From positions 4,732-68,731 of the forward strand of contig JAZOQU010000022.1 in the NCBI GenBank assembly GCA_045656225.1: DNA of 64,000 bases, read 5' to 3'. Source of the DNA: Kiritimatiellia bacterium (GTDB lineage Bacteria; Verrucomicrobiota; Kiritimatiellia; RFP12; UBA1067). Position numbers and translations under genes: made by a program. The notes beneath the pieces are model-generated. The model was not told where the DNA came from. It did not search any database and was given only the letters and a program-made list of their open reading frames with translations. Shown piece after piece: positions 43,061-58,850 of this stretch; the first letter of the stretch is position 1, and each line of letters starts with the position of its first letter.

Positions 43061-43061
43061 C

Positions 43062-43424
43062 TTATTGGCCGCGTTCTGCCCGATGAACAATCTCGCGCCA
43101 CAAGTTCTGAACCCATTGATCGTACTTACGAACAGGAATATTACTTTCCACTGGCAATATGGAAAAACTCTTTTCTCCATTCATGACAACATCAACCACG
43201 CAACGATTTTTTCGCTGAATAATCGTCAACCGATATGTCTTTTCGTCTGTTTTCTTGGGCAGCCATCTTCGCCTTTGCGCCGCAGAAACTATTGCTCGTT
43301 CCAACGAATATCCTTCCGCAACAAAAACTGGCACATCAACCACAGGCTCACCCACCCCAATCGCAACCGATTTGCATCCGGAAACTGCTGCGAGAAGACC
43401 TAATATTATAATAATCTTTTTCAT
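43062..43424 (-). CDS. Small lipoprotein, unknown function
   Basis: Lipobox MKKIIIILGLLAAVSGC; the gene is lower in GC than its left flank. Confidence 0.5.
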   Translation of the reverse strand: MKKIIIILGLLAAVSGCKSVAIGVGEPVVDVPVFVAEGYSLERAIVSAAQRRRWLPKKTDEKTYRLTIIQRKNRCVVDVVMNGEKSFSILPVESNIPVRKYDQWVQNLWREIVHRAERGQ

Positions 43425-43457
43425 TGTATTAAATTCCTTTCTTTATATCACAAATCG

Positions 43458-43560
43458 CCTTATAGGAAAAATAAACTATGTTATCATACCACAACACGCC
43501 TTATAAGGTCAATTAGAAGCCCATCTTTATAACTGTAGCCACTAAGAATCCAAAATCATA
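43458..43560. repeat. Direct repeat copy 1 (~100 bp) carrying two CCTTATAAGG-type palindromes
   Basis: Aligns with 44499..44600. The core ccttataaggNcaattagaaNcccatcNttataaNtgtagccactaagaatccaaaatcata is near-identical in both copies. Confidence 0.8.
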
Positions 43561-43628
43561 ATGCCCCAATATCATGTCTGCATTGGATGCAGCCCCTTAC
43601 CAGCGCTTTTATATAAATGCGGTGGTCG

Positions 43629-44108
43629 CTACAGCCTCTCAACTGCAGCGAAAACTTTTGCCGCGAGAGAGTCTGATAGCTGCCACATACCGACATTGCC
43701 GCGGCATGGGATGGGTTCGGGTAAGCGCCTTACGTTCGAGAGGTCCCACCAGAACCGATAGCCTTCATCCCATTTCTGCTTTGGCGTTGGCTTGGACTTA
43801 TAGACACCATCCTCCAACACTAGATTTAAGCCATCCCGCGCCTTGTAGTCACAAACTGCAATAATCTTACCAGGCCAATCCTTAACCTCGCGCCAAGAAG
43901 GAAGCTTCTCAAAATCCTCGTCCGAAAGCTCATGCGCAGCCATCGCCATAAACATCCCATATTGCTCCTTGCAAAACGACTTCGAACACGAAATCGCCAC
44001 CCGCCCTTCCCTCGGCTCTGGCATCATACTGCGATTCTCCGTCCGCTTGATTCCGTAAAGAATCATAATCGCATACGATCCAGTACAAGTAAAGGCGTTC
44101 ATAATCAA
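43629..44108 (-). CDS. ASCH-domain protein
   Basis: ASCH signature GxKxxExR present as GIKRTENR. About 70% amino-acid identity to the N-terminal half of the ASCH–RadC fusion at 49492..50319. Confidence 0.6.
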   Translation of the reverse strand: MIMNAFTCTGSYAIMILYGIKRTENRSMMPEPREGRVAISCSKSFCKEQYGMFMAMAAHELSDEDFEKLPSWREVKDWPGKIIAVCDYKARDGLNLVLEDGVYKSKPTPKQKWDEGYRFWWDLSNVRRLPEPIPCRGNVGMWQLSDSLAAKVFAAVERL

Positions 44109-44171
44109 GTATTCACAAAAACTGATTTAACATCTTTTAAAACACGTTCCGCTGTTCCGATTGCAAATCGA

Positions 44172-44492
44172 TCAGCAAGCTGCATAAGATCCCTTCTTAG
44201 TTTTACGCCCCGCCCTCTGCCGTTTCTTTTCAATATCTCTTCTCTTAAACAGTGATTCATCTATCTCAGGCGGTGCAATAGCCATAAGCCAATCCACCTT
44301 ACCGAGAGTACGGCAGTATGCAAGAAGCGAAAGAGTTGAAGAATTTTCCCCTAACTCAAGATTACGAATAGCCTTAAGCGACACGCCGCTCCTATCAGCA
44401 GCAGTTTGCTGTGATATATTAGCGGCAAGTCGCTGCGCCCTCAAGTTTTCACCCAGAACCTTGAGCATTTCTTCTTTTGTTCGATATATCAT
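44172..44492 (-). CDS. XRE-family helix-turn-helix transcriptional regulator
   Basis: Classic HTH_XRE: LRAQRLAANISQQTAADRSGVSLKAIRNLELGE. Immediately upstream of the ASCH gene. Confidence 0.6.
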   Translation of the reverse strand: MIYRTKEEMLKVLGENLRAQRLAANISQQTAADRSGVSLKAIRNLELGENSSTLSLLAYCRTLGKVDWLMAIAPPEIDESLFKRRDIEKKRQRAGRKTKKGSYAAC

Positions 44493-44498
44493 AAATCA

Positions 44499-44600
44499 TC
44501 TTATAAGGAAAATAAACAGCAATATTATAGCATAAGATTCCTTATAAGGCAATTAGAAACCCATCCTTATAATTGTAGCCACTAAGAATCCAAAATCATA
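44499..44600. repeat. Direct repeat copy 2 (~100 bp) carrying two CCTTATAAGG-type palindromes
   Basis: See copy 1. It lies directly upstream of the HTH gene start. Confidence 0.8.
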
Positions 44601-44848
44601 CAACTGCCCTGCGAGAGTTTTAAATTTCAACAAATCAAGCGTCGTTGTCCATAGTTTGCTTTCCTATGGCTTTAGCATAGACGACCTGGATGGATAGACG
44701 CTGAAATACTGTCTTGATTGCACATTAGAATTTTCCGCACAAGATTCTCATTTTCTCAAACGAAAGAAGATAACTCAAGATATTTGCCAGAAACACGAGA
44801 TTTTTGATTGCCTGCGCGGAGCTCGGCCCTAAGAAAGCACAAGATAAA

Positions 44849-44881
44849 AGTTGCAAAGTTGGTCAGACCTACTTTGCAACT
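44849..44881. repeat. 33-bp near-perfect palindrome AGTTGCAAAGT-tGGTCaGACCt-ACTTTGCAACT
   Basis: Inverted repeat read directly, with one mismatch pair. Homologous to the 45-bp palindrome at 45147..45191. Confidence 0.8.
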
Positions 44882-45146
44882 ATTATTACATCTAAGACTC
44901 CCATCACAACTTTGCCAATAGTGCAGCTGTACAATCTTACGATACGCTGTCCTTCGTGGAGAAGGCGAACTTGCGAATTGCGATTTTCGCTTTTTTGTGT
45001 TACACTACTCACCGTCTTAGGGAATTGGCCTTGCGACTTGTCGTATTGAGTCATCAAGCCCTGAGACATTTCTTTTGTTTCGGTTACATCGCAACAAACC
45101 TGACCATTTTCATTGTTTCACATTTAATCCGAGAATACAAATACGC

Positions 45147-45191
45147 ACCAAAAGTTGCAAAGTAGGTCTGACCTACTTTGCAACTTTTGGT
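45147..45191. repeat. 45-bp perfect palindrome (accaaaagttgcaaagtaggtc-t-gacctactttgcaacttttggt)
   Basis: 22-bp arms around a single central T, followed by TTATTT. Candidate bidirectional terminator, protein-binding site or MITE-like end. Confidence 0.8.
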
Positions 45192-45526
45192 TATTTCTTC
45201 GCTCCTCCGCATTTTGCGAAATCCGGCAAGCAAGGGATTGCGATAATCATTTACAAACAGGAAATTATCGGGATTTGCGCGACCGAAAAGCCCTCAGAGA
45301 TTGTGGATTGAGAAAGTTCGCAATCATACAATTACAATATCTTCTCAGCATTCGAAACAGAACTCTACCGCCGCATTTTGAGAAATGCGGCGGTAACTAC
45401 AGACAGCAGAATGCCGCGTAAATATGCCGCTGGACACAGTTTGCAAACTATGGATTAGCAGACGCTATTTAATAAGTCGGTGATGGTGGTGTCGAATGGC
45501 ATTGTAGCATACAATCATCTTTTAGT

Positions 45527-47533
45527 TCAATTGCCAAGCAGTCGCGAAAGCAGCGATCTTGACTTAAAGTCAATATCAAAGAAGTCTTTCGCCGCTGCCA
45601 AATCCATGATGACACTATCACGAGAACGTTTTGCACAAAGATTCTCCGGCAGCTCCTTCATCAATCGGTCAGCGTCCCAGTTTTCGCCAGCAACATATCG
45701 AAGTGTATTCATCCTCTTGTTTACTTCGAACGCATTGGGATTTGCTTGCCACGCCGTTTTAATTGTCTGTATGGCATATTTACCAGTGACCTTCTCACTG
45801 AAATAATCCTCCAAAGACAACTCCCGTATGAATGTAGGACAATTTGACAAATTTTCACTAAATATGGAACGCAAGATTACCGACGAAGCCTTAAGTATAT
45901 CTGGCGACTCTGATTCGGGGTTATCATCCTTGAGCGCCTCCATCAATTCAAGAACAGAATCAAGCATCCTACGAAGATACTCACGATAAAGCGCCGTTCC
46001 GATTTTTTGCTGAACAGATCGGACGATATTGCTTTTCATTACCTCCGTATTTGTAAGTCCAGCCTGAACGCGACAAATTACAGTTCGCCTTATAACTTCC
46101 TGTGCGACAGCCTTCACATCCTCATTTGCACTAATTACTACAGCGGGATAATTGAGAAGATGCTCAAGCGAACCGAAATCATCATTCTTAATCGTCTCAA
46201 TTGCGTGTTGATTAAACCTTGTATTAGTCAAATCGTCAACAATGATGGGCGCCCCTTGCACAGTACGTCGAAGCCCATCAATTGTCGTACGAGTAAACTC
46301 AGGCGCACTTATTTTCACCTTTTGTCCAATCATCATCTTAAGTAAGGTTTCCAGAAATGACGTCTTTCCAGCCTTAGACTGTCCATAGATGAGACCAAAC
46401 ACAGGATACGGAAGGGTTTTCTGATCATAACGCAAAGCTGTATCACGCATTACAGCCATAAAAGGCGAACAGAAGAACCAGTTCGCGAACTCGTAGTACC
46501 TATATTGCATCCCTTCGCAGTCACCATGGAATCTCTCAAAACCATTCATGTAACGAATAAAAAGTTCAACGTCAGATTTAATTTCATCTTGAGTAGGATG
46601 CAAATCAAGCGTAACACCATTAAGCAGCACACAACTCTTTTCAACATCAACGGCGAGCTGCGGATATTCACTCCTCAGTTCCTTCTCATGTTCGCTTTCC
46701 TTCACTTGCTGCCGTTTTACCTTCTGTATGACATCAGGCGTTACAAGAACTTTTCCTTTCCGCTTTTCTTCCTTTGAAATAGATATTGACGGCGCAATGC
46801 GTTTTGCCAAATTGCGAGTATCAAGAATAAAATTAACGTCCTCTTCCACATCCTTGACTGGCTCAATATAAATCGCCTTCTCAACCCTCGCAGTTTCAGC
46901 GATAGGTAATGCGTCTACATTCTCCGTGCTATCCGATATTTCAATAGCCTTTTTCGTTATAGTATCTACACTATCCTGTTTCAAATCCTCATAAGCCTCT
47001 TCAAACCGTTCGTATGCCTCCTGAGAATCAATATAACATATAATCTCTCTCTGTCGCCCGCCAAAAGCATTGAATGACATGTTTGCTGAACCGAATACAA
47101 CCCGAGCCCGTCCATCTTCCGCCTTGAGCAAATACAACTTTTCATGCGATAACCTTCTGCGCGCGACAAAAAGCCGCACATCACCACGCTCAACACGCGC
47201 AATCATCTTCTCCTTTGATGTAGAATCCGTCTTACGAATACGCTCCATTAACTTCGCCTGATAAGCCATTATCTCTTGAAGAGTATACGACATAACCTCT
47301 TCACATCCGAAAATAATTTCAGCGTCTTTGAACAAGTCAAGCAGTTGATATACAAAACCTATCCCCGATGAAAACGTAATTGCTTTGATTGAATTGAAAC
47401 CTGAAAAAAGTTCTTGCCACGTAATACTTTCTGAATAAACATAGTCCATCTTAACTACATCTATCTTGCTCATTCCACCATTTGACATCCCGTCAGATGA
47501 TGAAAATAAATCATCGCCAAAGTCTTTTGCCAT
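45527..47533 (-). CDS. Fused PLD-family nuclease and SF3-like P-loop NTPase (668 aa)
   Basis: N-terminal single HKD-type motif HEKLYLLKAEDGRARVVFGSANMS (HxK...D...GSxN). C-terminal Walker A GQSKAGKTS, Walker B IIVDDL, and a downstream VVISANE that resembles SF3-helicase motif C. Confidence 0.55.
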   Translation of the reverse strand: MAKDFGDDLFSSSDGMSNGGMSKIDVVKMDYVYSESITWQELFSGFNSIKAITFSSGIGFVYQLLDLFKDAEIIFGCEEVMSYTLQEIMAYQAKLMERIRKTDSTSKEKMIARVERGDVRLFVARRRLSHEKLYLLKAEDGRARVVFGSANMSFNAFGGRQREIICYIDSQEAYERFEEAYEDLKQDSVDTITKKAIEISDSTENVDALPIAETARVEKAIYIEPVKDVEEDVNFILDTRNLAKRIAPSISISKEEKRKGKVLVTPDVIQKVKRQQVKESEHEKELRSEYPQLAVDVEKSCVLLNGVTLDLHPTQDEIKSDVELFIRYMNGFERFHGDCEGMQYRYYEFANWFFCSPFMAVMRDTALRYDQKTLPYPVFGLIYGQSKAGKTSFLETLLKMMIGQKVKISAPEFTRTTIDGLRRTVQGAPIIVDDLTNTRFNQHAIETIKNDDFGSLEHLLNYPAVVISANEDVKAVAQEVIRRTVICRVQAGLTNTEVMKSNIVRSVQQKIGTALYREYLRRMLDSVLELMEALKDDNPESESPDILKASSVILRSIFSENLSNCPTFIRELSLEDYFSEKVTGKYAIQTIKTAWQANPNAFEVNKRMNTLRYVAGENWDADRLMKELPENLCAKRSRDSVIMDLAAAKDFFDIDFKSRSLLSRLLGN

Positions 47534-47662
47534 ACATCCTCCTTAAATTAAACTTTTGATGAAAATGTTGTAATCTCCATTTCTATTAGCTCAAACCGAG
47601 AAAGTAGGTCAGACATAACTTCTTAATTAAAAGTGTTAACATAAGCATCTTTACCTAATATC

Positions 47663-49465
47663 TCACAAAGCCTCATAATATTTCCTGATTTTTTCAGCCA
47701 TCATTTTACGACGCTTCGGCAAGAAGCACGTCTCAAAATCCTCAACACCCATCGTTATCACATCCTCTGGAACGCAATTCATTTCCATTGTCTGCTTCAC
47801 CATATCAATATCCGTCATTGATCCTATGACCGGACTCTTCGTTTCGCATTGCTTGAAAACACATCCGAAATACTCAGCGGGCGACTTTTTGCCGATTGCG
47901 ATGTTTATCGGAGTTTCTAAATAGGTGAAATTCGCCACCTGATTATACTGCGTAAACCGAAGCCCATTGTTCTTGAGGAATTCCTTCGGGAAAATATGGT
48001 GTACATCTCCATTATCAATAAGATTAGCAACCGCTGTTACCGAAAACAGGGACTGATCTCTAAAAAATACCTGTGCCGCCTTAAATACATTTAACGCAGG
48101 GCATTTAGCCGCCGACGTTTCCAGCTGTTGCACAATATTTACCGTCCAGAATGATTCCCCTAATTCTGCCGCTTCAATATCTGCAAGACACTTACGCACG
48201 CCTTTCTCTGCGATTGCGCGTAAATCTCGATCCATCTGAGATTCTGGAGACCCAGAATAACGCCCTGTCAATGTACTTAAGACGAACCACCTTCTGACAA
48301 ACGATTTAATTTCTGTAGCACCAACTTCTTTTGTCTCATTCAAGAGAAGATGCAATGTATAAGCGAAATCAAGCGACATTTGTGAGCGTAAGAGCTTAGA
48401 GGAAATAAACCCAGCCGACTCAATAGCCTCCACAAACTGCTTAAAATGATATTCCTTCACGAAGTTGTGAACACCAGACTCTAACTTGGCAAAGCTCTCC
48501 TGCATAATTTCGTCTTTAAAAGTACGATCCTTGAAATCACGTCCTGAAAGCAAACTGACAAGATCCTTCAATCTGCCGCGTCCGAACTTATGCATCATTG
48601 CCACTCGGAGCATATCACTATACTCAGGATCATAAATATCCTTGCGGTCATCCTTGAGCCATTTCATTTCGCCAGCATACGGCGTCGCCATAAACTCTAC
48701 ATCTTTCTCGACACTTGAATAGAACGCAGGATCAACCGCCAAATGACAAAAATAATCAATCGCCTTGCGCAAATCATTGCCTCCATAACGATTATCTGCC
48801 GCAATCTTCGACATTGCAAAATCAGCCTCATTAAGAATCTTACCTTGCGAATTTATGCGTACGAAAATCTCGGTAACCTCATCAATTCCAATATCCTGAC
48901 TAAGCTGAATTACGCCAATCTGACGCTGTTCAATGCGTAGCAACTCTCGAATCTTGGCATTTATCGCCTTGCGCTCCACGCCTAGGTTATCAGCAACATA
49001 CTGTTCTATAAATTCATAATCATCAAAATCCTTCTTAAAGAGAACGGAGATATCTGCAATCCAGCGCTTATCCTTTATATGAACCGGTGTCTGCACCTCA
49101 AAAGAAGGCTCTTCATCCGCCGCCCACGGATTAAATGCTATCTTGATCTGCTTAGATGAATAATCATCCCGCAAAACAGATCGCCCATCAATCGCCGTCA
49201 TAATAGCTGTGACGCGCTGCTGACCATCAATAAGAATCTTCTTCCCAAGCGACAACGATCCGTCCTTAAGCTTAACATCAGGATTTTGCCAGACAATAAT
49301 ATACCCTGCCGGATATCCACGATAAAGCGAATCTATCAAATCGCGGACCTGCGCACCGCTCCAAACAAACGGGCGCTGAATCTCCGGAATAGCAATCTCT
49401 CCATTCCTTACAAACCCAAGAATGTTCTCAATTGTCTTCTGCTCTATCGAATATTTCTCTGCCAT
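47663..49465 (-). CDS. GmrSD-family type IV restriction endonuclease (DUF262 plus DUF1524)
   Basis: N-terminal DUF262/ParB-like motif IPEIQRPFVWSGAQVRDLIDSLYRGYP. C-terminal DUF1524 His-Me finger motif DNGDVHHIFPKEF. 600 aa. Confidence 0.7.
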   Translation of the reverse strand: MAEKYSIEQKTIENILGFVRNGEIAIPEIQRPFVWSGAQVRDLIDSLYRGYPAGYIIVWQNPDVKLKDGSLSLGKKILIDGQQRVTAIMTAIDGRSVLRDDYSSKQIKIAFNPWAADEEPSFEVQTPVHIKDKRWIADISVLFKKDFDDYEFIEQYVADNLGVERKAINAKIRELLRIEQRQIGVIQLSQDIGIDEVTEIFVRINSQGKILNEADFAMSKIAADNRYGGNDLRKAIDYFCHLAVDPAFYSSVEKDVEFMATPYAGEMKWLKDDRKDIYDPEYSDMLRVAMMHKFGRGRLKDLVSLLSGRDFKDRTFKDEIMQESFAKLESGVHNFVKEYHFKQFVEAIESAGFISSKLLRSQMSLDFAYTLHLLLNETKEVGATEIKSFVRRWFVLSTLTGRYSGSPESQMDRDLRAIAEKGVRKCLADIEAAELGESFWTVNIVQQLETSAAKCPALNVFKAAQVFFRDQSLFSVTAVANLIDNGDVHHIFPKEFLKNNGLRFTQYNQVANFTYLETPINIAIGKKSPAEYFGCVFKQCETKSPVIGSMTDIDMVKQTMEMNCVPEDVITMGVEDFETCFLPKRRKMMAEKIRKYYEAL

Positions 49466-49491
49466 ATAAATTCTCCTTATTGCTTACGGTT

Positions 49492-50319
49492 TTAAAGTTT
49501 GTCCATCACTGACACATACCCTCGCCCTTCATCGCAATCAGGCGAACCAAGGATGAGGTGGTCAAGAAACTTGATACCAAGCAGTTGGGCGGCGGATTGC
49601 AATGCTTTAGTAATCTGCAAATCAGCCCTGCTCGGCGTAGGATTGCCGCTTGGATGATTGTGAGCGACGATGATTGCATCTGCCTGCGCCTTGAACGCCG
49701 CACGAAAGACTTCTCCCAAGTCCACGGTTGTTGTGCCTTGCGTGTGTCCGAGAGATACAAGCACAGGCAAACCAATCGGGCGACACTCCGCGTCAATCGG
49801 CAACACAAAGAAACCTTCCTGCTCACCCGCAATCGGAATTGCCACACGAAACAGCGGATAGGCGTCATCTGCCGTCTCAATGCGCGAGTTCAAAGCACAT
49901 TCAGCCGCAGACACTTTTGCCGCAAGATCGGACGGCATCTGCCACATGCCGACGTTGCCGCGGCAGGGAATCGGTTCGGGTAAACGCACAACGTTCAACA
50001 AATCCCACCAATACGGATAACCCTCGCCCCAAGATTCGGCTTTCTGCCTTTGCCGCGCCTTGTAGTCGCACACGCCAACAATCTTGCCCGGCCAGTTCTT
50101 CACCTCGCGCCACGCGGGCAGTTTCTCGAAATCCTCTGGCGACAGGCTCACCGACGCCCACGCGATGAACTGCCCGTACTCTTCTTTGCAAAACGACTTC
50201 GAACACGAAATCGCCGCCCGCCCCTCGCACGGCTCCGGCCACGCGCTGCGGTTCTCCGTGCGCTTGATTCCGTAAAGAATCAATATCGCGTATGCTCCAG
50301 TGCATGTAAAGGCGTTCAT
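49492..50319 (-). CDS. ASCH domain fused to a RadC-like JAB/MPN domain
   Basis: N-terminal ASCH (GIKRTENR) paralogous to 43629..44108. C-terminal JAMM-type motif VAHNHPSGNPTPSRADLQIT typical of RadC. Confidence 0.7.
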   Translation of the reverse strand: MNAFTCTGAYAILILYGIKRTENRSAWPEPCEGRAAISCSKSFCKEEYGQFIAWASVSLSPEDFEKLPAWREVKNWPGKIVGVCDYKARQRQKAESWGEGYPYWWDLLNVVRLPEPIPCRGNVGMWQMPSDLAAKVSAAECALNSRIETADDAYPLFRVAIPIAGEQEGFFVLPIDAECRPIGLPVLVSLGHTQGTTTVDLGEVFRAAFKAQADAIIVAHNHPSGNPTPSRADLQITKALQSAAQLLGIKFLDHLILGSPDCDEGRGYVSVMDKL

Positions 50320-50606
50320 AACTTACTTTGTGAGACTGCCGCGAATAATGGCAAATCAGTTTCTGAATCAACAAGTTCTATATTCTCGTTGTTCTCTCCA
50401 TAGAACTCAAATTTATGCTCGCGGCGAGAAATGCAAACGCCGCGTTTTTTCAATTCAACTGCAAACCACCGCCGTAATGACTGCGGCGTTGCTGCGAATT
50501 CATCAATAGAATCGAAATCTTCCCAACCGACATTTCCGTCAGCATCAGAAAATGGCTTGATTTTTAAAAGTTCATAGGTCATATTGACAGGACTTTTCAT
50601 TGACAT
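50316..50606 (-). CDS. Hypothetical protein (96 aa), first gene of the ASCH–JAB/GmrSD operon
   Basis: ATGA overlap with the downstream ASCH–RadC gene. No recognisable motif. Confidence 0.4.
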   Translation of the reverse strand: MSMKSPVNMTYELLKIKPFSDADGNVGWEDFDSIDEFAATPQSLRRWFAVELKKRGVCISRREHKFEFYGENNENIELVDSETDLPLFAAVSQSKL

Positions 50607-50780
50607 TCTGTTTTGATGCTATTCATCTCAGTTGTATAATTATCCTTACATAATTGGTATTCACAACGGAAGAAATCACTAGCACCATCATCATTCGTAT
50701 TCTTCATGAAGTGATAATTTTCCCCATGTCGTAAGCAAGATTAATCAACAGTTCTGTCGCCTTCACATAACAACACTTCA

Positions 50781-51779
50781 TTATCCCTTGAAAACATATT
50801 GACGATGATATTCCATGTATTTCTCTCTTTCATCATCTAATGGAAGTGCTTGAATATACGAACCCGTCTTGATATTACATTTAGCTTGGTTTGTGGGAGA
50901 TATCCAATTGGAGACTAACATACACTTCTTTTCATCAAAGGAAATAAACCCCTGATCAAACAAACGGTCATAAAGCGGAGATAATATGAATCCGTTTTTA
51001 GGATCAAATGCTTCATCGTCTTCTGATACAGAATATGGTTTTATATGACTCGCAACCAATAGTCTTTCATCAGAAATCTTGGTTATTGGACAATAGGGAC
51101 ACTCTTCCAAAAGTTTATCTCGATATCTCTTTTGGGCAACCGCATCACGATTACTTGTTTTTACAGATGTTTGTATCTCTTTCTCCTGTTTAGCGGCATT
51201 GTTATCACTAACAGAAGCTGTACCTTTCCCATAAGTAAACACTTGTGGAGTTAGCCCTCTTTGTTTTAATGCATCGAAATCCACGAAAAGTTTCCAGTAA
51301 TAACGAATCATCCCTTTGGGATCAGATAATCTCATAATAGAGATATAACTTATCAATGGAAGAGAAAGGGTTCTAAAAAGCTTGTATGCAAGATCATTGG
51401 AATTGATATATCCACGAGGTCCCGCAATTTGTGTTTGGACATGTACTTTAAATTCAATAATATCAGGCATCTTCAACAACGACCGAACACGCTCTTCCCA
51501 CAATTCGGGCATTTTGGATTTGCCTGCATAATTTTGAGTGGGGAACTTGTATTCCTTCTCGGCTGTCTGCATGTATTTCAATAAATCACTTTTCAAGAAA
51601 AAGCAATCTATAGTAGACGCGCCAAGAACGAACGAATGTAAATCAGATTTTGATCCGAAGTAGAATTTAGCCTCTCCGTTCCCTGTACCAAGTTTATTAG
51701 GTCCAAGAACATTGCAATCTGGAACTGTCAGAATGCGTGAGACATCTTGAAATTTATAAGTCTTTCCATCAATTCTCAT
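50781..51779 (-). CDS. HNH_2-type (His-Me finger) endonuclease, putative restriction enzyme partner of the adjacent methyltransferase
   Basis: C-terminal CPYCPITKISDERLLVASHIKPYS...NGFILSPLYDRLFDQGFISF, an ASHIKP...N...H-type HNH_2 core. 4-bp overlap with the methyltransferase stop. Confidence 0.6.
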   Translation of the reverse strand: MRIDGKTYKFQDVSRILTVPDCNVLGPNKLGTGNGEAKFYFGSKSDLHSFVLGASTIDCFFLKSDLLKYMQTAEKEYKFPTQNYAGKSKMPELWEERVRSLLKMPDIIEFKVHVQTQIAGPRGYINSNDLAYKLFRTLSLPLISYISIMRLSDPKGMIRYYWKLFVDFDALKQRGLTPQVFTYGKGTASVSDNNAAKQEKEIQTSVKTSNRDAVAQKRYRDKLLEECPYCPITKISDERLLVASHIKPYSVSEDDEAFDPKNGFILSPLYDRLFDQGFISFDEKKCMLVSNWISPTNQAKCNIKTGSYIQALPLDDEREKYMEYHRQYVFKG

Positions 51780-53848
51780 TTCTCGACCTCCTCCTTAAAC
51801 AATTCGGGAATAACATTTTTGATAGAGTCAAGTATCGCAACAAGCACATCAACGACAATAGCATTTCCTGCTTGCTGATACATTGGAGTGTCCGGAACAA
51901 CAATTTTAAAAGTATCGCTAAATCCCATCAGCCTGAGACATTCTCTCGGCGCTAATTTTCTAATTCTACCTTCCCTAGTTATGTAATTATCAACACCAGC
52001 TCTGTGCATTTTATGCATAGAGGTTAACAAAGGTCTTGCTATCTCCAAGTCAGTTTTGGGTCGAGAATAAAAGGTTTTAGTTCCTGTAGAAAGAACGTAC
52101 TTTCTCACCTTTTCAGAGAGAAAATATTTTTCAAGTTCAGGCATTCCAAAGCTCTTGGCAGTCTCTTCATCAACGAAAACAAAATCTCCGTGCCAATTAA
52201 ATTGCTGATTCTTCTTTTGACATAGCTGAACCTTGCCGTCAACTTGTGTATACCGCTTTGTAAGATTTCCCTCATCAAGAACAAATCGAACACCTTTTTC
52301 TGGAAGATAGTATTTACCTGGAACGACATCAAGTAAATAATCTTGCATCGTCGTTTTTAGTTTCTTCGGTGCTGGAAATTTGAAGCTTCCACCGATTTTT
52401 AAATCCTTACGAAACCCAACAACAAAAACACGTTCCCTATTTTGTGGTATTCCATAATCCTTAGAATTTAACACTTGATAATGCCAGTCATAACCTAAAT
52501 CTGTAAAAATCTTTGAAATAGTAGCCCATGTTTTTCCACCATCATTACTCAACAGTGCACGAACATTTTCATATATGAAACATTTTGGCTTAATTTCTGA
52601 TACTAAACGAGCATACTCATAAAACAATGTGCCACGAGTATCAGATAATCCCATCTGCTTGCCTACAAGACTAAACGATTGGCATGGGCTTCCTCCAACA
52701 AAGAGATCGACTTCATTTTTGTATGGCGCCCCCTCAAGAAATGTAACATTCCAATGAAATCTATCATCTGTAACCGGGTAATTCGCCATATATGATTGGC
52801 GAACCTTATTTCGAGGAAGCATTGGTCGATAAAGCATATCGACTAACTTCTTTCTTTCTTGCCAATCCTTTTCCGATTCCCAACCAACTCTAAATTTGTA
52901 AAATCCAATTGCTTCATGAAGCATTTGAACGCGGTCTTTTAACTCACGCTCAGGTCGCTTACTCATAGCTGGCGCACCGTCTAACAATGCCTGAATATTA
53001 TTGCGCTGATTTACAATCAACTCATAGGCCTGTTGAAGGCTTTCGCTGTTTGGCTTTAACTCGTCAATGCGCTCGCATAATTCCTTAAACGCCGCCACAC
53101 ATTCAGACCATTCTTTAGCACCACAAACAAAAGGAGTTTGGTCGCCATTATCACAAGCAAAAACAATTTCATGAGCGACATGAGTACGCAACAATGCTTG
53201 TTCAATAGCTCCTATCCCGCTAAAAACTGTCGCTAGTCTTAATTTTTCGCCTTTGGCTGATAACGCTTGTGCAACAACAGGCATTAAGCCATCGAAGAAA
53301 TCCAACTGTACTGGATTAAACGTTGTAGCTGAATGCCATTTCTTGAAATATGGTTTTAGTTTGTCAAAGATGTACGGCATTGACTTTCCGCCAGTTTTGG
53401 GGTAGGGCTTAGCGTAAAATGCCGCGTCAATCTTTACATTAGGACAACGCTGTGACGAAACAAAAACGTCTGCCGCGGAATCAGAAAGTGTCGCGGCAAA
53501 AGAAACCTTCTCTCCAAGTTCATATAGCGCGTATGCTGAACCATGCGCTTTATCTGCCGCGGCAACTTTATAACCATTTTCTTTGAGCCACGCGGCATCT
53601 ACAACTTCACGAAACTTTGCTTCGTAAGCTAAAGGAGTAAATCCATCAGCGATTAGAACGATTCGTGATATATTTTCATGAAACGCAACTTTCCCACAAG
53701 GCGGCAATGGAAGATTATAGAACTTCTTCTCCTTAATCCATTCCGCATTTTCCTTGCGAAAAGTCCCAACAAGAACAGCTGTATTAGCTTTATTTTCCCT
53801 TTTCTTTCCCATCTTCAATTCACTTTCTTTATCGCTCATATCATCCAC
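51776..53848 (-). CDS. DNA (cytosine-5)-methyltransferase with a ~200-aa N-terminal extension and a ~100-aa insertion between motifs I and IV
   Basis: Motif I ATVFSGIGA, IV GGSPCQSFS, VI ENVRALL, VIII QNRERVF, IX RKLAPRECLRLMGF, X GNAIVV. The likely true start is MSDKESELK at 53839, with AGGTGG 5 nt upstream. Confidence 0.85.
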   Translation of the reverse strand: MDDMSDKESELKMGKKRENKANTAVLVGTFRKENAEWIKEKKFYNLPLPPCGKVAFHENISRIVLIADGFTPLAYEAKFREVVDAAWLKENGYKVAAADKAHGSAYALYELGEKVSFAATLSDSAADVFVSSQRCPNVKIDAAFYAKPYPKTGGKSMPYIFDKLKPYFKKWHSATTFNPVQLDFFDGLMPVVAQALSAKGEKLRLATVFSGIGAIEQALLRTHVAHEIVFACDNGDQTPFVCGAKEWSECVAAFKELCERIDELKPNSESLQQAYELIVNQRNNIQALLDGAPAMSKRPERELKDRVQMLHEAIGFYKFRVGWESEKDWQERKKLVDMLYRPMLPRNKVRQSYMANYPVTDDRFHWNVTFLEGAPYKNEVDLFVGGSPCQSFSLVGKQMGLSDTRGTLFYEYARLVSEIKPKCFIYENVRALLSNDGGKTWATISKIFTDLGYDWHYQVLNSKDYGIPQNRERVFVVGFRKDLKIGGSFKFPAPKKLKTTMQDYLLDVVPGKYYLPEKGVRFVLDEGNLTKRYTQVDGKVQLCQKKNQQFNWHGDFVFVDEETAKSFGMPELEKYFLSEKVRKYVLSTGTKTFYSRPKTDLEIARPLLTSMHKMHRAGVDNYITREGRIRKLAPRECLRLMGFSDTFKIVVPDTPMYQQAGNAIVVDVLVAILDSIKNVIPELFKEEVEK
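53802..53841. repeat. 40-bp perfect direct repeat (copy 1) covering the methyltransferase start codon
   Basis: tttctttcccatcttcaattcactttctttatcgctcata is identical to 54965..55004 and encodes MSDKESELKMGKK on the minus strand. Confidence 0.85.
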
Positions 53849-53866
53849 CTATCATGCGCCCTGCCA

Positions 53867-55003
53867 TCAGTCGCATTTCCCTTTCTCAGAAAGACGATTT
53901 CGTGCAGCCTCTATCGCCAAACGGAACTTCGCCTCCAGCACCTTCTTCGGCGGCAATTCCGTCATATATGACGCGACCCTTATATTGCTACGCCCCAACT
54001 CCAACAATTCAACATGTTCCTCGTTCTTCCCAGCGCACAAAATTAATCCGATTGGCTTGTTTTCACCTTTGCACATCTCATTCTTCTCAAGCCATTTCAA
54101 ATACAACTCCATCTGACCTTTGTACTCAGCTTTAAAAGTATCTATTTTGAGGTCGATAGCCACAAGCCTGCGAAGACGCCTGTGGAAAAACAATAAATCA
54201 AGATAATAATCTTCGTTGTCCACGCTGATACGCTTCTGTTCTGCAAGAAACGCCATATCACCACCAAGCTCAAGTATAGCGTTCCTCATGTCTGCAACAA
54301 GAGCCTTCTCAAGTTCCTTCTCCGAAAAATTGCCGCGCAGCCCAAGAAAATCTAAAACATACGGATCTCGAAAGGCAAGGTCGGCAGACATCTTGCCTTC
54401 TTCACGCAGTGCTTCCAAATCCTTTTTTATAACTGCCTTAGGCTTTTTTGCTATTGCTGTACGTTCATACATCATCGAAGCGATGCGTCCTTGCAATGTA
54501 CGCGTCCCCCAATGTTCCGTTGCGCACATTTCAAGGTAGAACTGCCTCTTAAGAGAATCTGAAATGTAAGAGAGCGTCTTGATGTGCGTCCACGACAATT
54601 GTCTCCGCAATGCGGAGAGAATCTCATCCTCGCCGAAAGTCTCCGCGGCGCGGAGACAATGCCTCAACGTCTTCTCATCCCATCCACCCCCATGAAAAAG
54701 CATAAGACGAGATGCCAACCCCTTGACAACCTTCTTACCATACTCAGCGCGACCGCAACCGAGAATTTCTCTATTAATGCAGTTGCCAACATTCCAATTC
54801 AATTTGGTCAACTCAGTATTAACTCCAACAGCCACGCGCTCCCTTGCCGCTGTTATCAATGATGATATTTCGTTGAAGAGCCTGGTAATCGCATCATCTA
54901 CAAAATTGACACCTGATGATGATTGTCCTAAAACATCATTTTTCTCTTTAACTTCAGAACTCTTTTTCTTTCCCATCTTCAATTCACTTTCTTTATCGCT
55001 CAT
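53867..55003 (-). CDS. YhcG/DUF1016-family PDDEXK nuclease-like protein
   Basis: YhcG-like N-terminal motifs (LSWTHIKTL) and a C-terminal PDDEXK-like core (VAIDLKIDTFKAEYKGQMELYLKWL). Start set to MSDKESELK (55003); the track's 55048 start crosses the upstream HTH gene. Confidence 0.6.
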   Translation of the reverse strand: MSDKESELKMGKKKSSEVKEKNDVLGQSSSGVNFVDDAITRLFNEISSLITAARERVAVGVNTELTKLNWNVGNCINREILGCGRAEYGKKVVKGLASRLMLFHGGGWDEKTLRHCLRAAETFGEDEILSALRRQLSWTHIKTLSYISDSLKRQFYLEMCATEHWGTRTLQGRIASMMYERTAIAKKPKAVIKKDLEALREEGKMSADLAFRDPYVLDFLGLRGNFSEKELEKALVADMRNAILELGGDMAFLAEQKRISVDNEDYYLDLLFFHRRLRRLVAIDLKIDTFKAEYKGQMELYLKWLEKNEMCKGENKPIGLILCAGKNEEHVELLELGRSNIRVASYMTELPPKKVLEAKFRLAIEAARNRLSEKGKCD

Positions 55004-55004
55004 A
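54965..55004. repeat. 40-bp perfect direct repeat (copy 2) covering the YhcG-like start codon
   Basis: See copy 1. Confidence 0.85.
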
Positions 55005-55013
55005 GTCTTCGCC

Positions 55014-55217
55014 TCATTCATGCACAACGTCCATAATATCGCCAACATTGCAATTTAGCACCTTGCATATTCTCGTCATCAGATCAAACGAGATATACTC
55101 ATCTTTAGATAACTTTGCAAAGGTAGACGAAGACGCGCCGACAGCTATTCGCAGATCTGTCCGCGTCATTTCTTTATCTATAAGAAGCTTCCACAATTTC
55201 TTATACGAAACACCCAT
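55014..55217 (-). CDS. Small HTH (XRE-like) DNA-binding protein, candidate R–M controller (C-protein-like)
   Basis: 67 aa from MGVSYKKLWKLLIDKEMTRTDLRIAVGASSSTFAKLSK. AGGAG RBS 7 nt upstream. Extended -10 element TGgTATAAT about 35 bp upstream. Confidence 0.55.
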   Translation of the reverse strand: MGVSYKKLWKLLIDKEMTRTDLRIAVGASSSTFAKLSKDEYISFDLMTRICKVLNCNVGDIMDVVHE

Positions 55218-55344
55218 ACCATCTCCTAATTGACGTGTAATATTATACCAAATCACATCCTAAACATACAAATATAACCTTTGACTTTTCAAAGGTGGAC
55301 AGATATGAAAAAACTGCATTTTATACCTTATTTCATACCCAAAC

Positions 55345-55400
55345 AGTGCGCATCTCTCACTTGAAAAGTGCGCACTTCTCGACCAAGAGGTGCACACTTC
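55345..55400. promoter_or_regulatory. Three direct repeats (a)GTGCGCAcTTC phased at 22 bp
   Basis: agtgcgcatctc at 55345, agtgcgcacttc at 55367, ggtgcacacttc at 55389. They lie between small ORF copy 1 and the HTH promoter. Confidence 0.6.
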
Positions 55401-55457
55401 TTTTCTTGGAGCTTACGACACCCCATCAACCGCTTTGCGCAATCGCCGCTTGTCGGA

Positions 55458-55619
55458 TTACGCTTTCAGCAGCGCAAGAATACCGCATAAAATGATTATC
55501 CCGAGAAACCACACAACACACTCGAGGCACGACTGCGTGCCGTCGCATGAATCATCCGGTCCGGAAGGCATCCTTAAGCCTCTCTCAAACTCCTCTTTAA
55601 ATTTTTCCCATCTAGTCAT
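55458..55619 (-). CDS. Small tail-anchored Cys-rich membrane protein (53 aa), copy 1; below the ORF-track size cutoff
   Basis: MTRWEKFKEEFERGLRMPSGPDDSCDGTQSCLECVVWFLGIIILCGILALLKA, with RBS AAGGTGA 4 nt upstream. Lies inside a ~180-bp repeat (55444..55627). Confidence 0.45.
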   Translation of the reverse strand: MTRWEKFKEEFERGLRMPSGPDDSCDGTQSCLECVVWFLGIIILCGILALLKA

Positions 55620-55758
55620 AATCACCTTTTATCATAAAATATAAACCACACCTACCCCAATCCTGTTAATCCTGTCAAAAAAACTTTATCCACAAATCTG
55701 CACATATCGACACAAATCAATTTGTGGAAATTTGTGACGATTTGTGGACTCCAACTCC

Positions 55759-56160
55759 CTACCCGAACAACTTCTCAACCAGCTCTCTATCCGCAGGACA
55801 AAAATCAATATCGCGCATTTGATCTACCGTTACCCAGCGAATCTCCTGATGTTCCAATGCTTGCGGCACAGCCCCATTTTTCGGATTACATTCGATCAAT
55901 GTAAGACGAATTGTCTTTTCGGGATATTCATGCACAACAGAATCGATAATTCGCTCGTTTTCAATCTCTAGCGCCAGCTCTTCAAGACACTCTCGCTTAA
56001 GCGCCTTTTCAGAAGTTTCGCCAGGCTCGATCTTCCCACCCATAAACTCCCATAATCCACCCTGCGACTTATGCGCCGGCCGCTGCCCGATAAGATACTT
56101 ATCACCATCTTTGATGATGGCTCCAACAACCTCTATCACATTATCATTATACATTTTCAA
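55759..56160 (-). CDS. NUDIX hydrolase (MutT-like)
   Basis: Nudix box GGKIEPGETSEKALKRECLEELAL. Confidence 0.8.
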   Translation of the reverse strand: MKMYNDNVIEVVGAIIKDGDKYLIGQRPAHKSQGGLWEFMGGKIEPGETSEKALKRECLEELALEIENERIIDSVVHEYPEKTIRLTLIECNPKNGAVPQALEHQEIRWVTVDQMRDIDFCPADRELVEKLFG

Positions 56161-56182
56161 TTATCGCAAAACTTTTTTGTTA

Positions 56183-56917
56183 TTATAACGCATCTATCGC
56201 ATCCCGAGCAGTCGCATTTCTTCGCGCATCAATTCGCTTAGCTTTTTCAGCATCCAACTCAGCCTGCTCTTTTTTTGCCTGCGCATATCCCAAAGAATCA
56301 ACTAGAGAAACAGAACTATTACCATAACTACCAAGAACAGAAATCCTCCTTATTCTATCTCGGTACGTTCCATCCAATTCACACCTAAAAACCATATTAG
56401 ATTTCTTTACCATTTCCGCATCGAATTTCTTCTCAATTGCTTTCTTGGCTAAAATCGGCAATTCGTTGACTTCTGAAGATTTCGGCAACGGAAATGCGTC
56501 TTGCATCGCTTTATCCTTGATCAAAAACTTACTAGTTATAGCGCACGCCACAATCTTATAGACAAGATGCGTTTTCGGGGTTACACACACGTAATAAACG
56601 TTATAGCCGAGAAATTGTTTTTCAGGAATAAAATAAATCTTCGATTCCGCTGACAAATCAGATGGAACATCCTCTATTTTTTCCGCAATTTTCTTACCGA
56701 AAAGTCCGTTAAATTGATTATACAACCGATTCGATATTAATGAATTTTTAGACTGAGAAGCTCTTTGTCCACCCCTATTTTCTGATATACGCTGGCTTCT
56801 TCTTGTCAGTTTTGGGCTATCCATTGTATAAGAACTAGCCCTTACATCAAAGCAACATATGGACATAGAAGTTATGATAGTTGATAAGATCAATGTTCTT
56901 ATATAATCAACCTTCAT
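56183..56917 (-). CDS. Hypothetical secreted protein (244 aa), AT-rich gene
   Basis: Signal-peptide-like N-terminus. Upstream promoter with TGgTATAAT extended -10 at about 57075. Confidence 0.45.
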   Translation of the reverse strand: MKVDYIRTLILSTIITSMSICCFDVRASSYTMDSPKLTRRSQRISENRGGQRASQSKNSLISNRLYNQFNGLFGKKIAEKIEDVPSDLSAESKIYFIPEKQFLGYNVYYVCVTPKTHLVYKIVACAITSKFLIKDKAMQDAFPLPKSSEVNELPILAKKAIEKKFDAEMVKKSNMVFRCELDGTYRDRIRRISVLGSYGNSSVSLVDSLGYAQAKKEQAELDAEKAKRIDARRNATARDAIDAL

Positions 56918-57126
56918 TTTTATTCTAACCTTTTTTATTATTGCGCTATTTCTGCCGATTATGATAATTTTCCAGATTTCCGTATTAGGAGCGTTAATGC
57001 GCTTTTTAGTTCTCTACGCGAGCTCCTTTCCACGCGGCAACAAGGCATTTCACCGCCTCGTCTATATGCCAATATTATACCAAATCCCATACCCCAAAAA
57101 AACACTTTGATAATAGCTATTCTCTC

Positions 57127-57148
57127 CTTCACATATTGCAATATGTGA
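57127..57148. promoter_or_regulatory. 22-bp perfect palindrome ttcacatattgcaatatgtgaa upstream of the 56183..56917 promoter
   Basis: Read directly. About 40–60 bp upstream of the extended -10 element. Confidence 0.6.
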
Positions 57149-57292
57149 AATAAACCTCGATGAACAGCCCCTCGGCTATTCTGAGACAGGATCAACAGGA
57201 TTGGAATTGCAGTATTTTCAACCACGAAATACACGAAAACTAACGGGGACAATCCCCTCGGCAATTACCCAGAATAATGGTTTATTTTACTT

Positions 57293-58615
57293 TCACGCCT
57301 TGCAATCTAAACACCCTAAAACGCGCATTGATTCGTTGCGCGCGTCAACGAGATAGATTTTATATGTATCTCCCCCTGGCGCGACCTTAACGACAACATG
57401 CACACCAAAACGCGTCGCCTCAGGTATGCCGCTAAAACGCCCTTCCTTTTCAAATCTCGTCTTGCGCGAGATCGGATAAATAGTCGGTATGACAATCGGC
57501 AGCTTATCGTTATGCATTTCACGCGACATCATACGCGAAAGCGTTTCTGGCGCTACTTGTCCCGGGCACCAAATGCACGAGATGTAATTCTGCGCCTGGA
57601 CGGCGCGAACAAAACCCTCGCTCATTGCGTCCGCACATCCGTGATGATTCGCCTTGCATACGCTGACACGCCCAGCGAGACGCCCAACAACTCCTTCATA
57701 ATCGACAGACGACCCATCCTCGCGTTTCAAGACTCCGCTCAAATCGCCGCCGGCGAAGTACCCAAACTTGCCGTAACGCACAACAAAAGCGAGAGAACGG
57801 ACATTTTCATTGACGACATCTCCGCCAGTAGCCTTCTCGTGAGCGGACAAATAATCGCAGGATCCTTTTTCGCCATCCCAGGCGACACCGTTCGCGCACA
57901 GATTGCGAACGGAAAAAACACCTCTGAACCTGGAAGCGTCGTTCCGCAACATCTCAATCTGATTCAATGCACCAATTTTGAAAGGCTCGACGACAAGCCC
58001 TTTCTTCGATTCGCGCTCGAACCAAGGCTTCACGGCAGCGCTGAAGCTCAGCCAATCGTTAGACTTAAACTGTCCCTGTCTGGGATACTGATGATCAAAA
58101 TACCGCCTGAACGAAAAATCCTGCGCCACGCTCACTATGCCATTTCCGGAAAGTCCATCCGGATATTTGCGATAGCGAAAGTGAGCTCCGGGAGTTTTTT
58201 CACGATCAATGGGGCCCGTCCCGGTATGGTCGGCATGCCAATGCGAAAAAACGAGATAATCAATCGTCTTCTCGGGATAAACGCGCTGAATATACCGACT
58301 GACCCATTCTCCCCCAATCCTGTCTGAAGACGGGAGAAGCGGAATTTCACCCAAATCGCGCGGACGGTAAAAATCACCTACATCATTCAGCATCGAAGTT
58401 CCGTCGGGGAATCGGTAAAAACAGTTCTCGCCGCAACCCGTATAAATAAAATGGAGTTCCAGCTCACCAGGTTTCCACTCCGGCAAAACAGATCCCGTTT
58501 CCGGCGATTCAACAGCTCGAGCGAGCCATGGAGGCAAAGTCCCGCATGCCATTGCAACTCCGGCGAACGACGTTTTCAAAAATTCTCTTCTGTTCATAAT
58601 ATTTCTTCTCTCCAA
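57293..58615 (-). CDS. TAT-exported MBL-fold metallo-hydrolase
   Basis: Twin-arginine signal NRREFLKTSFAG and metallo-beta-lactamase motif HWHADHTG. Confidence 0.75.
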   Translation of the reverse strand: MERRNIMNRREFLKTSFAGVAMACGTLPPWLARAVESPETGSVLPEWKPGELELHFIYTGCGENCFYRFPDGTSMLNDVGDFYRPRDLGEIPLLPSSDRIGGEWVSRYIQRVYPEKTIDYLVFSHWHADHTGTGPIDREKTPGAHFRYRKYPDGLSGNGIVSVAQDFSFRRYFDHQYPRQGQFKSNDWLSFSAAVKPWFERESKKGLVVEPFKIGALNQIEMLRNDASRFRGVFSVRNLCANGVAWDGEKGSCDYLSAHEKATGGDVVNENVRSLAFVVRYGKFGYFAGGDLSGVLKREDGSSVDYEGVVGRLAGRVSVCKANHHGCADAMSEGFVRAVQAQNYISCIWCPGQVAPETLSRMMSREMHNDKLPIVIPTIYPISRKTRFEKEGRFSGIPEATRFGVHVVVKVAPGGDTYKIYLVDARNESMRVLGCLDCKA

Positions 58616-58659
58616 ATCTTCTAATCTCCAAGCAACGAAAGTATCAGCCGCTTGTCGGA

Positions 58660-58821
58660 TTACGCTTTAAGCAGAGCAAGAACAACGCACAAAACGATTA
58701 TCCCGAGAAACCACACGACACACTCAATGCACGACTGCGGGCCGTCGCATGAATCATCCGGTCCGGAAGGCATCCTTAAGCCTCTGTCAAACTCCTCTTT
58801 AAATTTTTCCCATCTAGTCAT
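58660..58821 (-). CDS. Small tail-anchored Cys-rich membrane protein (53 aa), copy 2
   Basis: MTRWEKFKEEFDRGLRMPSGPDDSCDGPQSCIECVVWFLGIIVLCVVLALLKA, with RBS GGTGA. Lies inside repeat 58644..58827, 30 bp downstream of the GH gene stop. Confidence 0.45.
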   Translation of the reverse strand: MTRWEKFKEEFDRGLRMPSGPDDSCDGPQSCIECVVWFLGIIVLCVVLALLKA

Positions 58822-58850
58822 AATCACCATCGCTCCACACTTGCAGAAAT

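Follow-up and report, generated by a model that had tools for sequence, protein, structure and literature searches.

The 64,000-nucleotide (nt) stretch of a Kiritimatiellia bacterium genome analysed here (contig JAZOQU010000022.1, positions 4,732 to 68,731 of the forward strand; hereafter the window) carries on its minus strand two copies of a small open reading frame (sORF) of 53 amino acids (aa), set in a direct repeat that brackets a 3.2-kb segment. These are paralogous copies of a genuine small membrane-protein gene, and we consider it probable, if only modestly so, that this gene is similar to the phage add-on genes known as morons and is shuffled together with defence cassettes. The evidence comes from the variation among copies of the frame, from a family of distant relatives, and from the intergenic module in which the gene travels. 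Other loci with copies or homologues are denoted by L numbers and protein sequences by P numbers.

The repeat pair and its reading frame

A repeat search of the window recovers a direct repeat of 182 nt at 55445–55626 and 58647–58828, with 94% identity between the copies, and a 26-nt probe taken from it matches these two sites only, with no match in 100 shuffles. The repeat had been recognized in an initial annotation of the window, which gave it as 55444–55627 and 58644–58827, with copy 2 about 1–3 nt away from its true position and with an identity, about 90%, that was too low. On the minus strand the two copies are homologous from GGTGAT, which lies 7 nt ahead of the ATG, to ...TCCGACAAGCGGC, 14 nt past the TAA; beyond both ends the flanks of the two copies are unrelated and cannot be aligned. 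The features of the pair are:

55445–55626, minus strand: repeat copy 1, consisting of the ribosome-binding site (RBS) GGTGAT, the sORF and 14 nt (repeat search, family D1; alignment)
58647–58828, minus strand: repeat copy 2 (repeat search; alignment)
55458–55619, minus strand: coding sequence of sORF-1, 53 aa plus stop, MTRWEKFKEEFERGLRMPSGPDDSCDGTQSCLECVVWFLGIIILCGILALLKA (open reading frame list; coding signal; structure model)
58660–58821, minus strand: coding sequence of sORF-2, 53 aa plus stop (open reading frame list)

Both frames have the 53-aa sequences first quoted for them, with ATG codons at 55619 and 58821. They differ by 11 nt, which Nei-Gojobori path counting divides into about 5 synonymous changes and 6 replacements (E12D, T28P, L32I, I43V, G46V and I47V), giving a synonymous rate (dS) of 0.16, a non-synonymous rate (dN) of 0.05 and a ratio (omega) of 0.30; this comparison, suggested at the outset as a check on the gene, points to constraint. 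Wider sampling gives the same picture. In 16 distinct DNA copies, taken from the window, from four Kiritimatiellae/Kiritimatiellia metagenome-assembled genomes (MAGs) of yak and water deer and from ENA, JGI and Logan contigs, variant alleles in codons 8–53 fall on codon positions 1, 2 and 3 in the numbers 17, 16 and 32. Read in the sORF frame they are 34 synonymous to 31 non-synonymous, where a fraction of 0.25 would be expected to be synonymous (omega ~0.31; binomial p = 2.6e-6; alleles phylogenetically non-independent). The antisense frame, which shares third positions with the sORF, has a weaker synonymous excess (27:38), and the remaining four frames have omega values of ~1.2–1.5. An antisense gene on the plus strand was considered and rejected on this weaker excess, the shared third positions and the low complexity of its product.

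The kinds of change are similarly informative. Alleles common to several copies are mostly synonymous or exchange V, I and L, and radical changes are mostly singletons; a count by eye on the aligned 36 codons of the divergent remnant L004 gives 9 synonymous changes and 4 replacements; and in L007 and L020 (DNA) and P0011 (protein sequence) the frame is kept open through re-framed N-termini and alternative starts. On the evidence of these alignments the open reading frame is a genuine protein-coding gene under purifying selection, and the contention of the initial annotation that the protein is real is borne out by a constraint that is specific to its frame. That annotation had also looked to frameshifts or stops in further copies as a sign that coding constraint was lacking. 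Most copies are intact, but three lineages are broken: L003 has a 2-nt deletion at codons 6–7, and its earliest possible in-frame start is M17; the P0015 lineage, on 13 contigs, loses the transmembrane (TM) helix to a 1-nt deletion at W37; and L004 is a fragment covering residues 6–41 only.

The protein family and its predicted structure

A word-indexed protein search returned 15 protein clusters at 77–89% identity, all of them unnamed or 'hypothetical', and relatives at 35–59% identity, 60–76 aa long when two over-long gene calls are excluded, were added by searching 1.8 billion representatives with a profile and then running an indexed search again. These relatives follow the pattern M-[GS]-A-W-[ED]-x-F-K-E-G-F-E-x-G-L ... 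G-P-D-G ... G-P-x-S-C-x-E-C and then a hydrophobic helix, with conservation of F7, K8, F11, G14, L15, GPDG, GP, SC, E33 and the helix itself. The helix is often followed by G-S-G-L-P-W-D-P, and the longer relatives have a conserved C-terminal GLPWDP tail. Homologues with a conserved open reading frame, on which the coding claim had been made to depend, are thus present elsewhere and reach as far as these distant proteins. At the DNA level, similarity to the P0031 loci (L029–L031) is down to 73% over 113 nt only, and this erosion of the nucleotide match means that conservation is at the level of the protein.

The family has been seen only in the four MAGs and in metagenome contigs. An exact 23-mer scan of genome contigs gave no match, a degenerate protein-pattern scan of the same contigs found the four MAG loci only, and a scan of JGI metagenomes found 3 loci; most copies came through look-ups of ENA and Logan contigs. 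The protein matched no family (0) in Pfam, PADLOC, PHROGs or NCBIfam, its profile gave no match in the PDB (best E-value 0.6), and a literature search found no paper bearing on the family. By these comparisons the family is undescribed, without a match in the curated libraries searched.

AlphaFold2, run on the family alignment, predicts helices at residues 3–16 and 26–52 with a mean confidence score (pLDDT) of 84, and the Kyte-Doolittle 19-residue mean rises to 2.6 in the C-terminal segment, in agreement with the charged N-terminal part and single hydrophobic helix first described. The model is that of a single-pass membrane protein with an N-terminal amphipathic helix, a GPDG..GP linker, a CxxC motif at the membrane boundary and a TM helix, and an inner-membrane location is predicted. 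Two parts of the original description do not carry over to the family. 'Cys-rich' was an overstatement, as C31 is conserved family-wide and C34 mostly so, forming a CxxC at the start of the long helix, and C25 and C45 are not kept. 'Tail-anchored', with the N-terminus inside, is not established: the helix is flanked by acidic sequence on both sides, the 33 N-terminal residues having 8 negative against 5 positive charges, and the longer relatives continue into the GLPWDP tail. An N-out orientation is possible by analogy with the Pf3 coat protein, which is oriented in this way. The sORF product resembles Pf3-coat-like and tail-anchored bitopic proteins in its acidic soluble N-terminal region of ~33 residues, its single C-terminal TM helix and its very short tail, but it has no sequence relationship to them, and its longer relatives add the conserved tail after the helix.

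The intergenic module, its contexts and its probable exchange

Alignment of the copies with 220-nt flanks, together with blastn mapping of sub-modules, reveals a canonical unit of ~540 nt in the order hairpin A, upstream region, RBS and sORF, 'TGATAC' segment, TTGCGCAAC hairpins, and GTGCGCAC hairpins followed by TTTT. The complete module is found at L005, L018, L019 and L021, each time in a different gene context, and partial versions are found elsewhere. The parts present in the window are:

55684–55749, minus strand: hairpin A, a terminator-like imperfect palindrome of 60 nt with a T-run behind it, after the NUDIX gene (inverted repeat I2; fold)
55620–55676, minus strand: conserved upstream module, with ACAGGATTA direct repeats, GGGGTAGGTGTGGTTTATATTTTATGATAAAAGG and then the RBS (conservation in other copies)
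55346–55419, minus strand: downstream module, a terminator-like hairpin made of GTGCGCAC palindromes, with TTTT behind it (alignment, fold; the hairpin was also flagged on the opposite strand)
58610–58646, minus strand: first 37 nt of the 'TGATAC' tail segment, ending at the start region of the metallo-beta-lactamase-fold (MBL) gene (blastn to L005, L018, L019, L020 and L021)

Copy 1 holds hairpin A, the upstream region, the sORF and the GTGCGCAC part, and lacks the middle segments. Copy 2, lying between a glycoside hydrolase (GH106) gene and the MBL gene, consists of the sORF and the 37 nt of the TGATAC segment, a piece kept at this copy only of the two. The 182-bp repeat is therefore not a natural unit; by sub-module mapping it is the overlap, an RBS-ORF core, of two differently truncated versions of the module. 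sORF-2 has no upstream module of its own and starts 29 nt after the stop codon of GH106, directly behind the glycoside hydrolase gene as had been noted, and from this arrangement the two are probably co-transcribed. Copy 1 had been said to abut a helix-turn-helix gene, which puts them too close: the HTH_26 gene lies ~200 nt downstream.

The upstream 57 nt are 92–100% identical in 8 other copies across different gene contexts; the number of ACAGGATTA repeats varies among module copies (2 or 3), and GGGGTAGGTGTGGTTTATATTTTATGATAAAAGG is nearly invariant. This conservation makes 55620–55676 the presumed promoter and 5' leader of sORF-1, and a weak TTGGGG-18-TATGAT match, readable by eye only, lies upstream of the sORF. 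The terminator-like hairpin formed by GTGCGCAC..GTGCGCAC, with its TTTT, follows copy 1 and most other copies and is missing at copy 2. From a promoter placed by conservation and a terminator placed by sequence we infer that the unit is transcribed independently, and the ~540-nt unit would then act like a moron, that is, as an independently transcribed add-on gene.

Hairpin A recurs at L002, L005, L018 (several copies), L019 and L021, and sORF-free occurrences of it and of the tail segments are found at L018 (several), L001 (590–692) and L006 (2173–2353); on this distribution they are general intergenic modules of these islands. A transposon or a miniature inverted-repeat transposable element (MITE) was considered and rejected, since in the alignment the ends of the module show neither terminal inverted repeats nor target-site duplications. 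The setting nevertheless invites the explanation that the whole is a non-coding repeat, an intergenic element like a MITE or a repetitive extragenic palindrome (REP), or a recombination site, in which the frame is fortuitous. Frameshifted and partial copies exist, the antisense frame is open too, conservation in the 14 nt behind the stop codon and in the 57 nt upstream is at least equal to that of the frame, and the adjoining hairpin A, TTGCGCAAC and GTGCGCAC hairpins are clearly non-coding and occur without the sORF. However, a fortuitous frame would not have a synonymous excess specific to itself, nor N-terminal indels offset by new start codons, and it would not be retained, together with its motif pattern and hydrophobic helix, in relatives at 35–59% protein identity when the P0031 loci match at 73% over 113 nt; the lack of terminal inverted repeats and target-site duplications also speaks against such an element, and we give this explanation little credence. 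Still less probable, and rejected here, is that the conserved product is a structured small RNA or a cis-regulatory RNA instead of a protein. The 501-nt region around copy 1 does fold more stably than shuffles (z = -4.3), but this stability is owed to the flanking hairpins; in the 182-nt core the RNAalifold covariation term is a negligible -0.88 kcal/mol, with compensatory change in 2 of 52 predicted pairs, no Rfam family matches at threshold, and the variation tracks codon positions.

The gene contexts of the module are varied, and in many of them the sORF stands beside co-oriented defence-type genes: HTH_26 and DUF1016 in L001; a C5 methyltransferase in L002, where a 785-aa open reading frame also adjoins; GmrSD, a methyltransferase and AAA_5 in L008–L017; RhuM, NUDIX and a PLD-helicase in L018; HTH_26, a methyltransferase and RE_NgoBV in L019; NUDIX, GIY-YIG and DUF1016 in L020; and PDDEXK_3 and HATPase_c_3 in L021. 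In L022 the co-oriented neighbour is a BNR sialidase. Distant homologues lie behind MmeI-family restriction-modification genes at three loci, L033, L028 and L032, with 0, 2 and 3 genes between, respectively. One distant homologue, P0019 in L024, is flanked by the tail genes of a Mu-like prophage (Portal_Mu, Mu Gp36 and a Mu-like protease) and stands beside a weak tape-measure match. The succession of GH106 and sORF recurs at window copy 2, L003, L006 and L008–L017, and the cargo that follows differs each time. In L006 (1–790) the GH106 gene is cut to its last 68 codons, window positions 60873–59090 have no counterpart, and the following sORF is intact. A conserved partner gene was sought and rejected, since the small open reading frames after the sORF in L008, L028 and L031 are mutually unrelated. 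The one in L031 (347–508), of 53 aa and following a long-form homologue, begins MTADELEKIISRHEMQSLELKESF, a start that we take to be like those of AlbA_2/Schlafen-type domains, so that it could presumably be a truncated defence-type gene; the corresponding 53-aa frame in L029 has no Pfam or PHROGs family.

Wherever a downstream gene is visible, the prophage locus aside, the sORF stands upstream of variable defence genes and co-oriented with them, as would a leader peptide or upstream open reading frame whose translation regulates those genes in cis. We regard this as very improbable: terminator-like hairpins and separate TGGTATAAT-type promoters intervene between the sORF and the next gene, the conserved amino-acid sequence and TM helix would be needless in a leader peptide, what follows copy 2 is an MBL-fold gene, and in the prophage the copy runs antisense to the genes around it.

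The segment between the two copies, which bears on a possible exchange of these units, contains the genes originally described:

55627–58646, minus strand: segment bracketed by the two copies, encoding the MBL-fold protein, the 244-aa secreted protein and NUDIX (open reading frames, family scans; missing from L003)
57293–58615, minus strand: MBL-fold protein, a weak metallo-beta-lactamase-fold match
56183–56917, minus strand: 244-aa secreted protein, no family match
55759–56160, minus strand: NUDIX protein, PADLOC candidate PDC-S07

L003, a contig of a related MAG, matches the window without a break from GH106 through one hybrid sORF and then continues into the sequence downstream of copy 1 (window 55626–55275); it is without the MBL, 244-aa and NUDIX genes, and thus without the 3.2-kb segment. 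This arrangement fits the expected product of recombination between the direct repeats, or else the state before a Campbell-type insertion, and it lends some support to the early proposal that the repeats are a recombination substrate. The two window copies, as direct repeats, would allow the segment to be gained or lost. Copy 2 is closest to the copy on another contig, L005, with 5 differences in the distance matrix against 12 from copy 1; in the 3' half copy 1 is identical to L003 and has 10 differences from copy 2, and in the 5' half copies 1 and 2 have 2 differences only. By these allele distances the copies belong to different allelic lineages that are shared between genomes, with an exchange between copies in the 5' half being possible. 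The two copies would have come with different cassettes by homologous recombination and not by local duplication, and sORF units may spread and rearrange generally in this way.

Co-oriented variable genes separated by recurring imperfect palindromes are also a property of integron cassettes, and in L018 the RhuM gene and the sORF unit are each flanked on either side by hairpin A, which has four blastn matches there. The differences are several: no integron integrase is among the annotated island genes, the ends of hairpin A (GGTCCACAAATC...GATTTGTGGA) do not, by eye, fit the RYYYAAC/GTTRRRY of attC, sORF modules carry promoter- and terminator-like signals, and their exchange is apparently ordinary homologous recombination.

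Possible roles and the surrounding defence island

The closest parallels to the unit are the morons HK97 gp15 and P22 SieA. Like these, it encodes a small predicted membrane protein on a compact unit bracketed by terminator-like hairpins, placed between unrelated genes in low-GC acquired DNA. HK97 gp15 is a moron in the tail operon, beside a tape-measure-like gene, and confers superinfection exclusion at the inner membrane (PMC3594210); one sORF homologue, P0019, likewise occupies a prophage tail-gene region next to a tape-measure-like gene, although on the opposite strand to the tail genes. In contrast to both morons, the family has no sequence similarity to any PHROG family and most copies are in chromosomal defence islands instead of prophages, the window copies lying in or beside a low-GC island. 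By this analogy the sORF protein may insert in the inner membrane and there interfere with phage infection as gp15 or SieA do. An anti-phage action of this superinfection-exclusion type, drawn from context, is a tentative proposal that we hold to be a good deal less likely than the moron-like gene itself. The joint proposition, that the sORF unit and the hairpin modules form a lineage-specific cassette-boundary system and that the product is a new membrane anti-phage factor, seems to us rather unlikely.

The main rival is a type I toxin-antitoxin-like module, in which the sORF would encode a membrane-damaging toxin with its translation curbed by an antisense RNA from the conserved flanks. Like the type I toxins Hok, Ldr, Ibs, Fst, TisB and ZorO, the product is shorter than 60 aa with one predicted TM helix, the gene is multi-copy and intergenic in variable regions, and conservation continues past the frame into the ~540-nt module; these same properties (multi-copy, small, TM, intergenic, conserved beyond the frame) have served as search criteria for new type I toxins (PMC2887945). 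The frameshifts that inactivate the gene in some lineages are likewise what toxins show. However, no antisense RNA gene is evident at sORF loci: the opposite strand, read by eye, has no convincing promoter, and a consensus scan does no better there than in shuffles. There is no Rfam match and little covariation, and the sORF has no Pfam or NCBIfam match to any toxin family. In known type I toxins the TM helix is usually close to the N-terminus and the C-terminus is short and polar, whereas the sORF has a long conserved soluble N-terminal part of 33 residues with a CxxC. Copy 2, within an operon, is without the flanking module and probably co-transcribed with GH106, which would be hazardous for a toxin. 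We judge a toxin to be unlikely.

Several observations weigh against the moron-like reading or its anti-phage extension. In the prophage the copy runs antisense to the tail genes and no Shine-Dalgarno sequence is visible ahead of it, and no homologue was found in IMG/VR (three queries) or in GenBank phages (tblastn, two queries). On the strand of the sORF a consensus scan turned up no strong sigma-70 site, promoter-like sites being no more numerous than in shuffled sequence. L003 alone is compatible with deletion or insertion alike. The copies broken in three lineages make the gene, and with it any function of the sORF, dispensable. The non-independence of the alleles counted above belongs here too. 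Small genes also pile up in variable regions anyway, so that a defence-island context is weak evidence for an anti-phage role.

Small membrane-protein add-on genes in prophages and defence islands, amid repeated intergenic modules, are a familiar theme, and it is the protein family itself that is unmatched. It constitutes a new and well-supported small-protein family from a poorly studied gut phylum, Kiritimatiellota, in a class of proteins that is routinely under-annotated. Its position at the edges of cassettes, together with the one copy in a prophage tail region, offers a concrete candidate for a small membrane-level anti-phage factor, and the mosaic of common intergenic modules provides a view of defence-island rearrangement in these bacteria that can be tested. 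If the joint proposition above is true, modules of ~0.5 kb repeated between co-oriented defence genes would enable gut Kiritimatiellia to exchange, acquire and lose anti-phage cassettes by recombination, with no dedicated integrase, and the sORF product would be a superinfection-exclusion-type factor common to prophages and defence islands; without a phage-related role, the finding shrinks to an ordinary lineage-specific accessory gene.

The island that contains copy 1 is summarized as follows:

43000–57000, no strand assigned: low-GC defence island with PLD nuclease, GmrSD, RadC, HNH, C5 methyltransferase, DUF1016, HTH_26 and NUDIX (family scans; GC)

Over ~43–57 kb of the window the guanine-plus-cytosine (GC) content is 38–44%, against 48–56% in the flanking carbohydrate-active enzyme and pyruvate formate-lyase genes, which fits a defence island gained by horizontal transfer; the GC content of the MBL gene (57.3–58.6 kb) is core-like. 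PADLOC assigns the DUF1016/YhcG gene to PDC-S02, as it does NUDIX to PDC-S07. No integrase domain was found among the island open reading frames scanned, window 1–39 kb not having been scanned for recombinases, and integration linked to a tRNA gene was rejected, the window having 0 tRNA genes.

Within the island a perfect direct repeat of 41 nt (53800–53840 and 54964–55004) supplies the start codon and first 13 codons (MSDKESELKMGKK) to the C5 methyltransferase gene and to the DUF1016/YhcG nuclease gene, which are unrelated, and the same 5' piece also heads a 455-aa gene in L001 (2718–2744) and a 92-aa gene in L019 (1271–1303). Such shared gene starts suggest cassette swapping by recombination. 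Short elements recur around the bracketed genes as well. An inverted copy of the GACAGGATYAACAGGATTGG motif that precedes sORF-1 lies between the MBL and 244-aa genes (57185–57204, plus strand). Upstream of the 244-aa gene is a 22-nt perfect palindrome, TTCACATATTGCAATATGTGAA (57122–57150), whose motif occurs five times in L002 (2050–3789) and which looks like an operator or REP-type element. The sequence GATTTGGTATAATATT, an extended -10 type promoter, is repeated before the HTH_26 and 244-aa genes (55239–55258 and 57071–57090), and similar TTTTGGTATAATAT sequences precede the first island gene in L008–L017.

Towards the left edge of the island, 43645–44104 and 49904–50321 are a partial duplication (74–78% identity) of the 5' part of a RadC-like gene, which may mark the island boundary or an older insertion. 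Two further repeat pairs lie on this side, one of 51 nt at 94% identity (43510–43560 and 44550–44600) and one of a 39-nt palindromic unit at 92% (44846–44884 and 45150–45188), and the ~1.4 kb around them (44.1–45.5 kb) has no open reading frame of at least 120 aa. Finally, a ZMP/ZTP (pfl motif) riboswitch above the Rfam gathering threshold is located at 42781–42885 on the minus strand, where it overlaps the annotated GTG start region of a pyruvate formate-lyase-like open reading frame (40505–42856), the true start of which may be further downstream.

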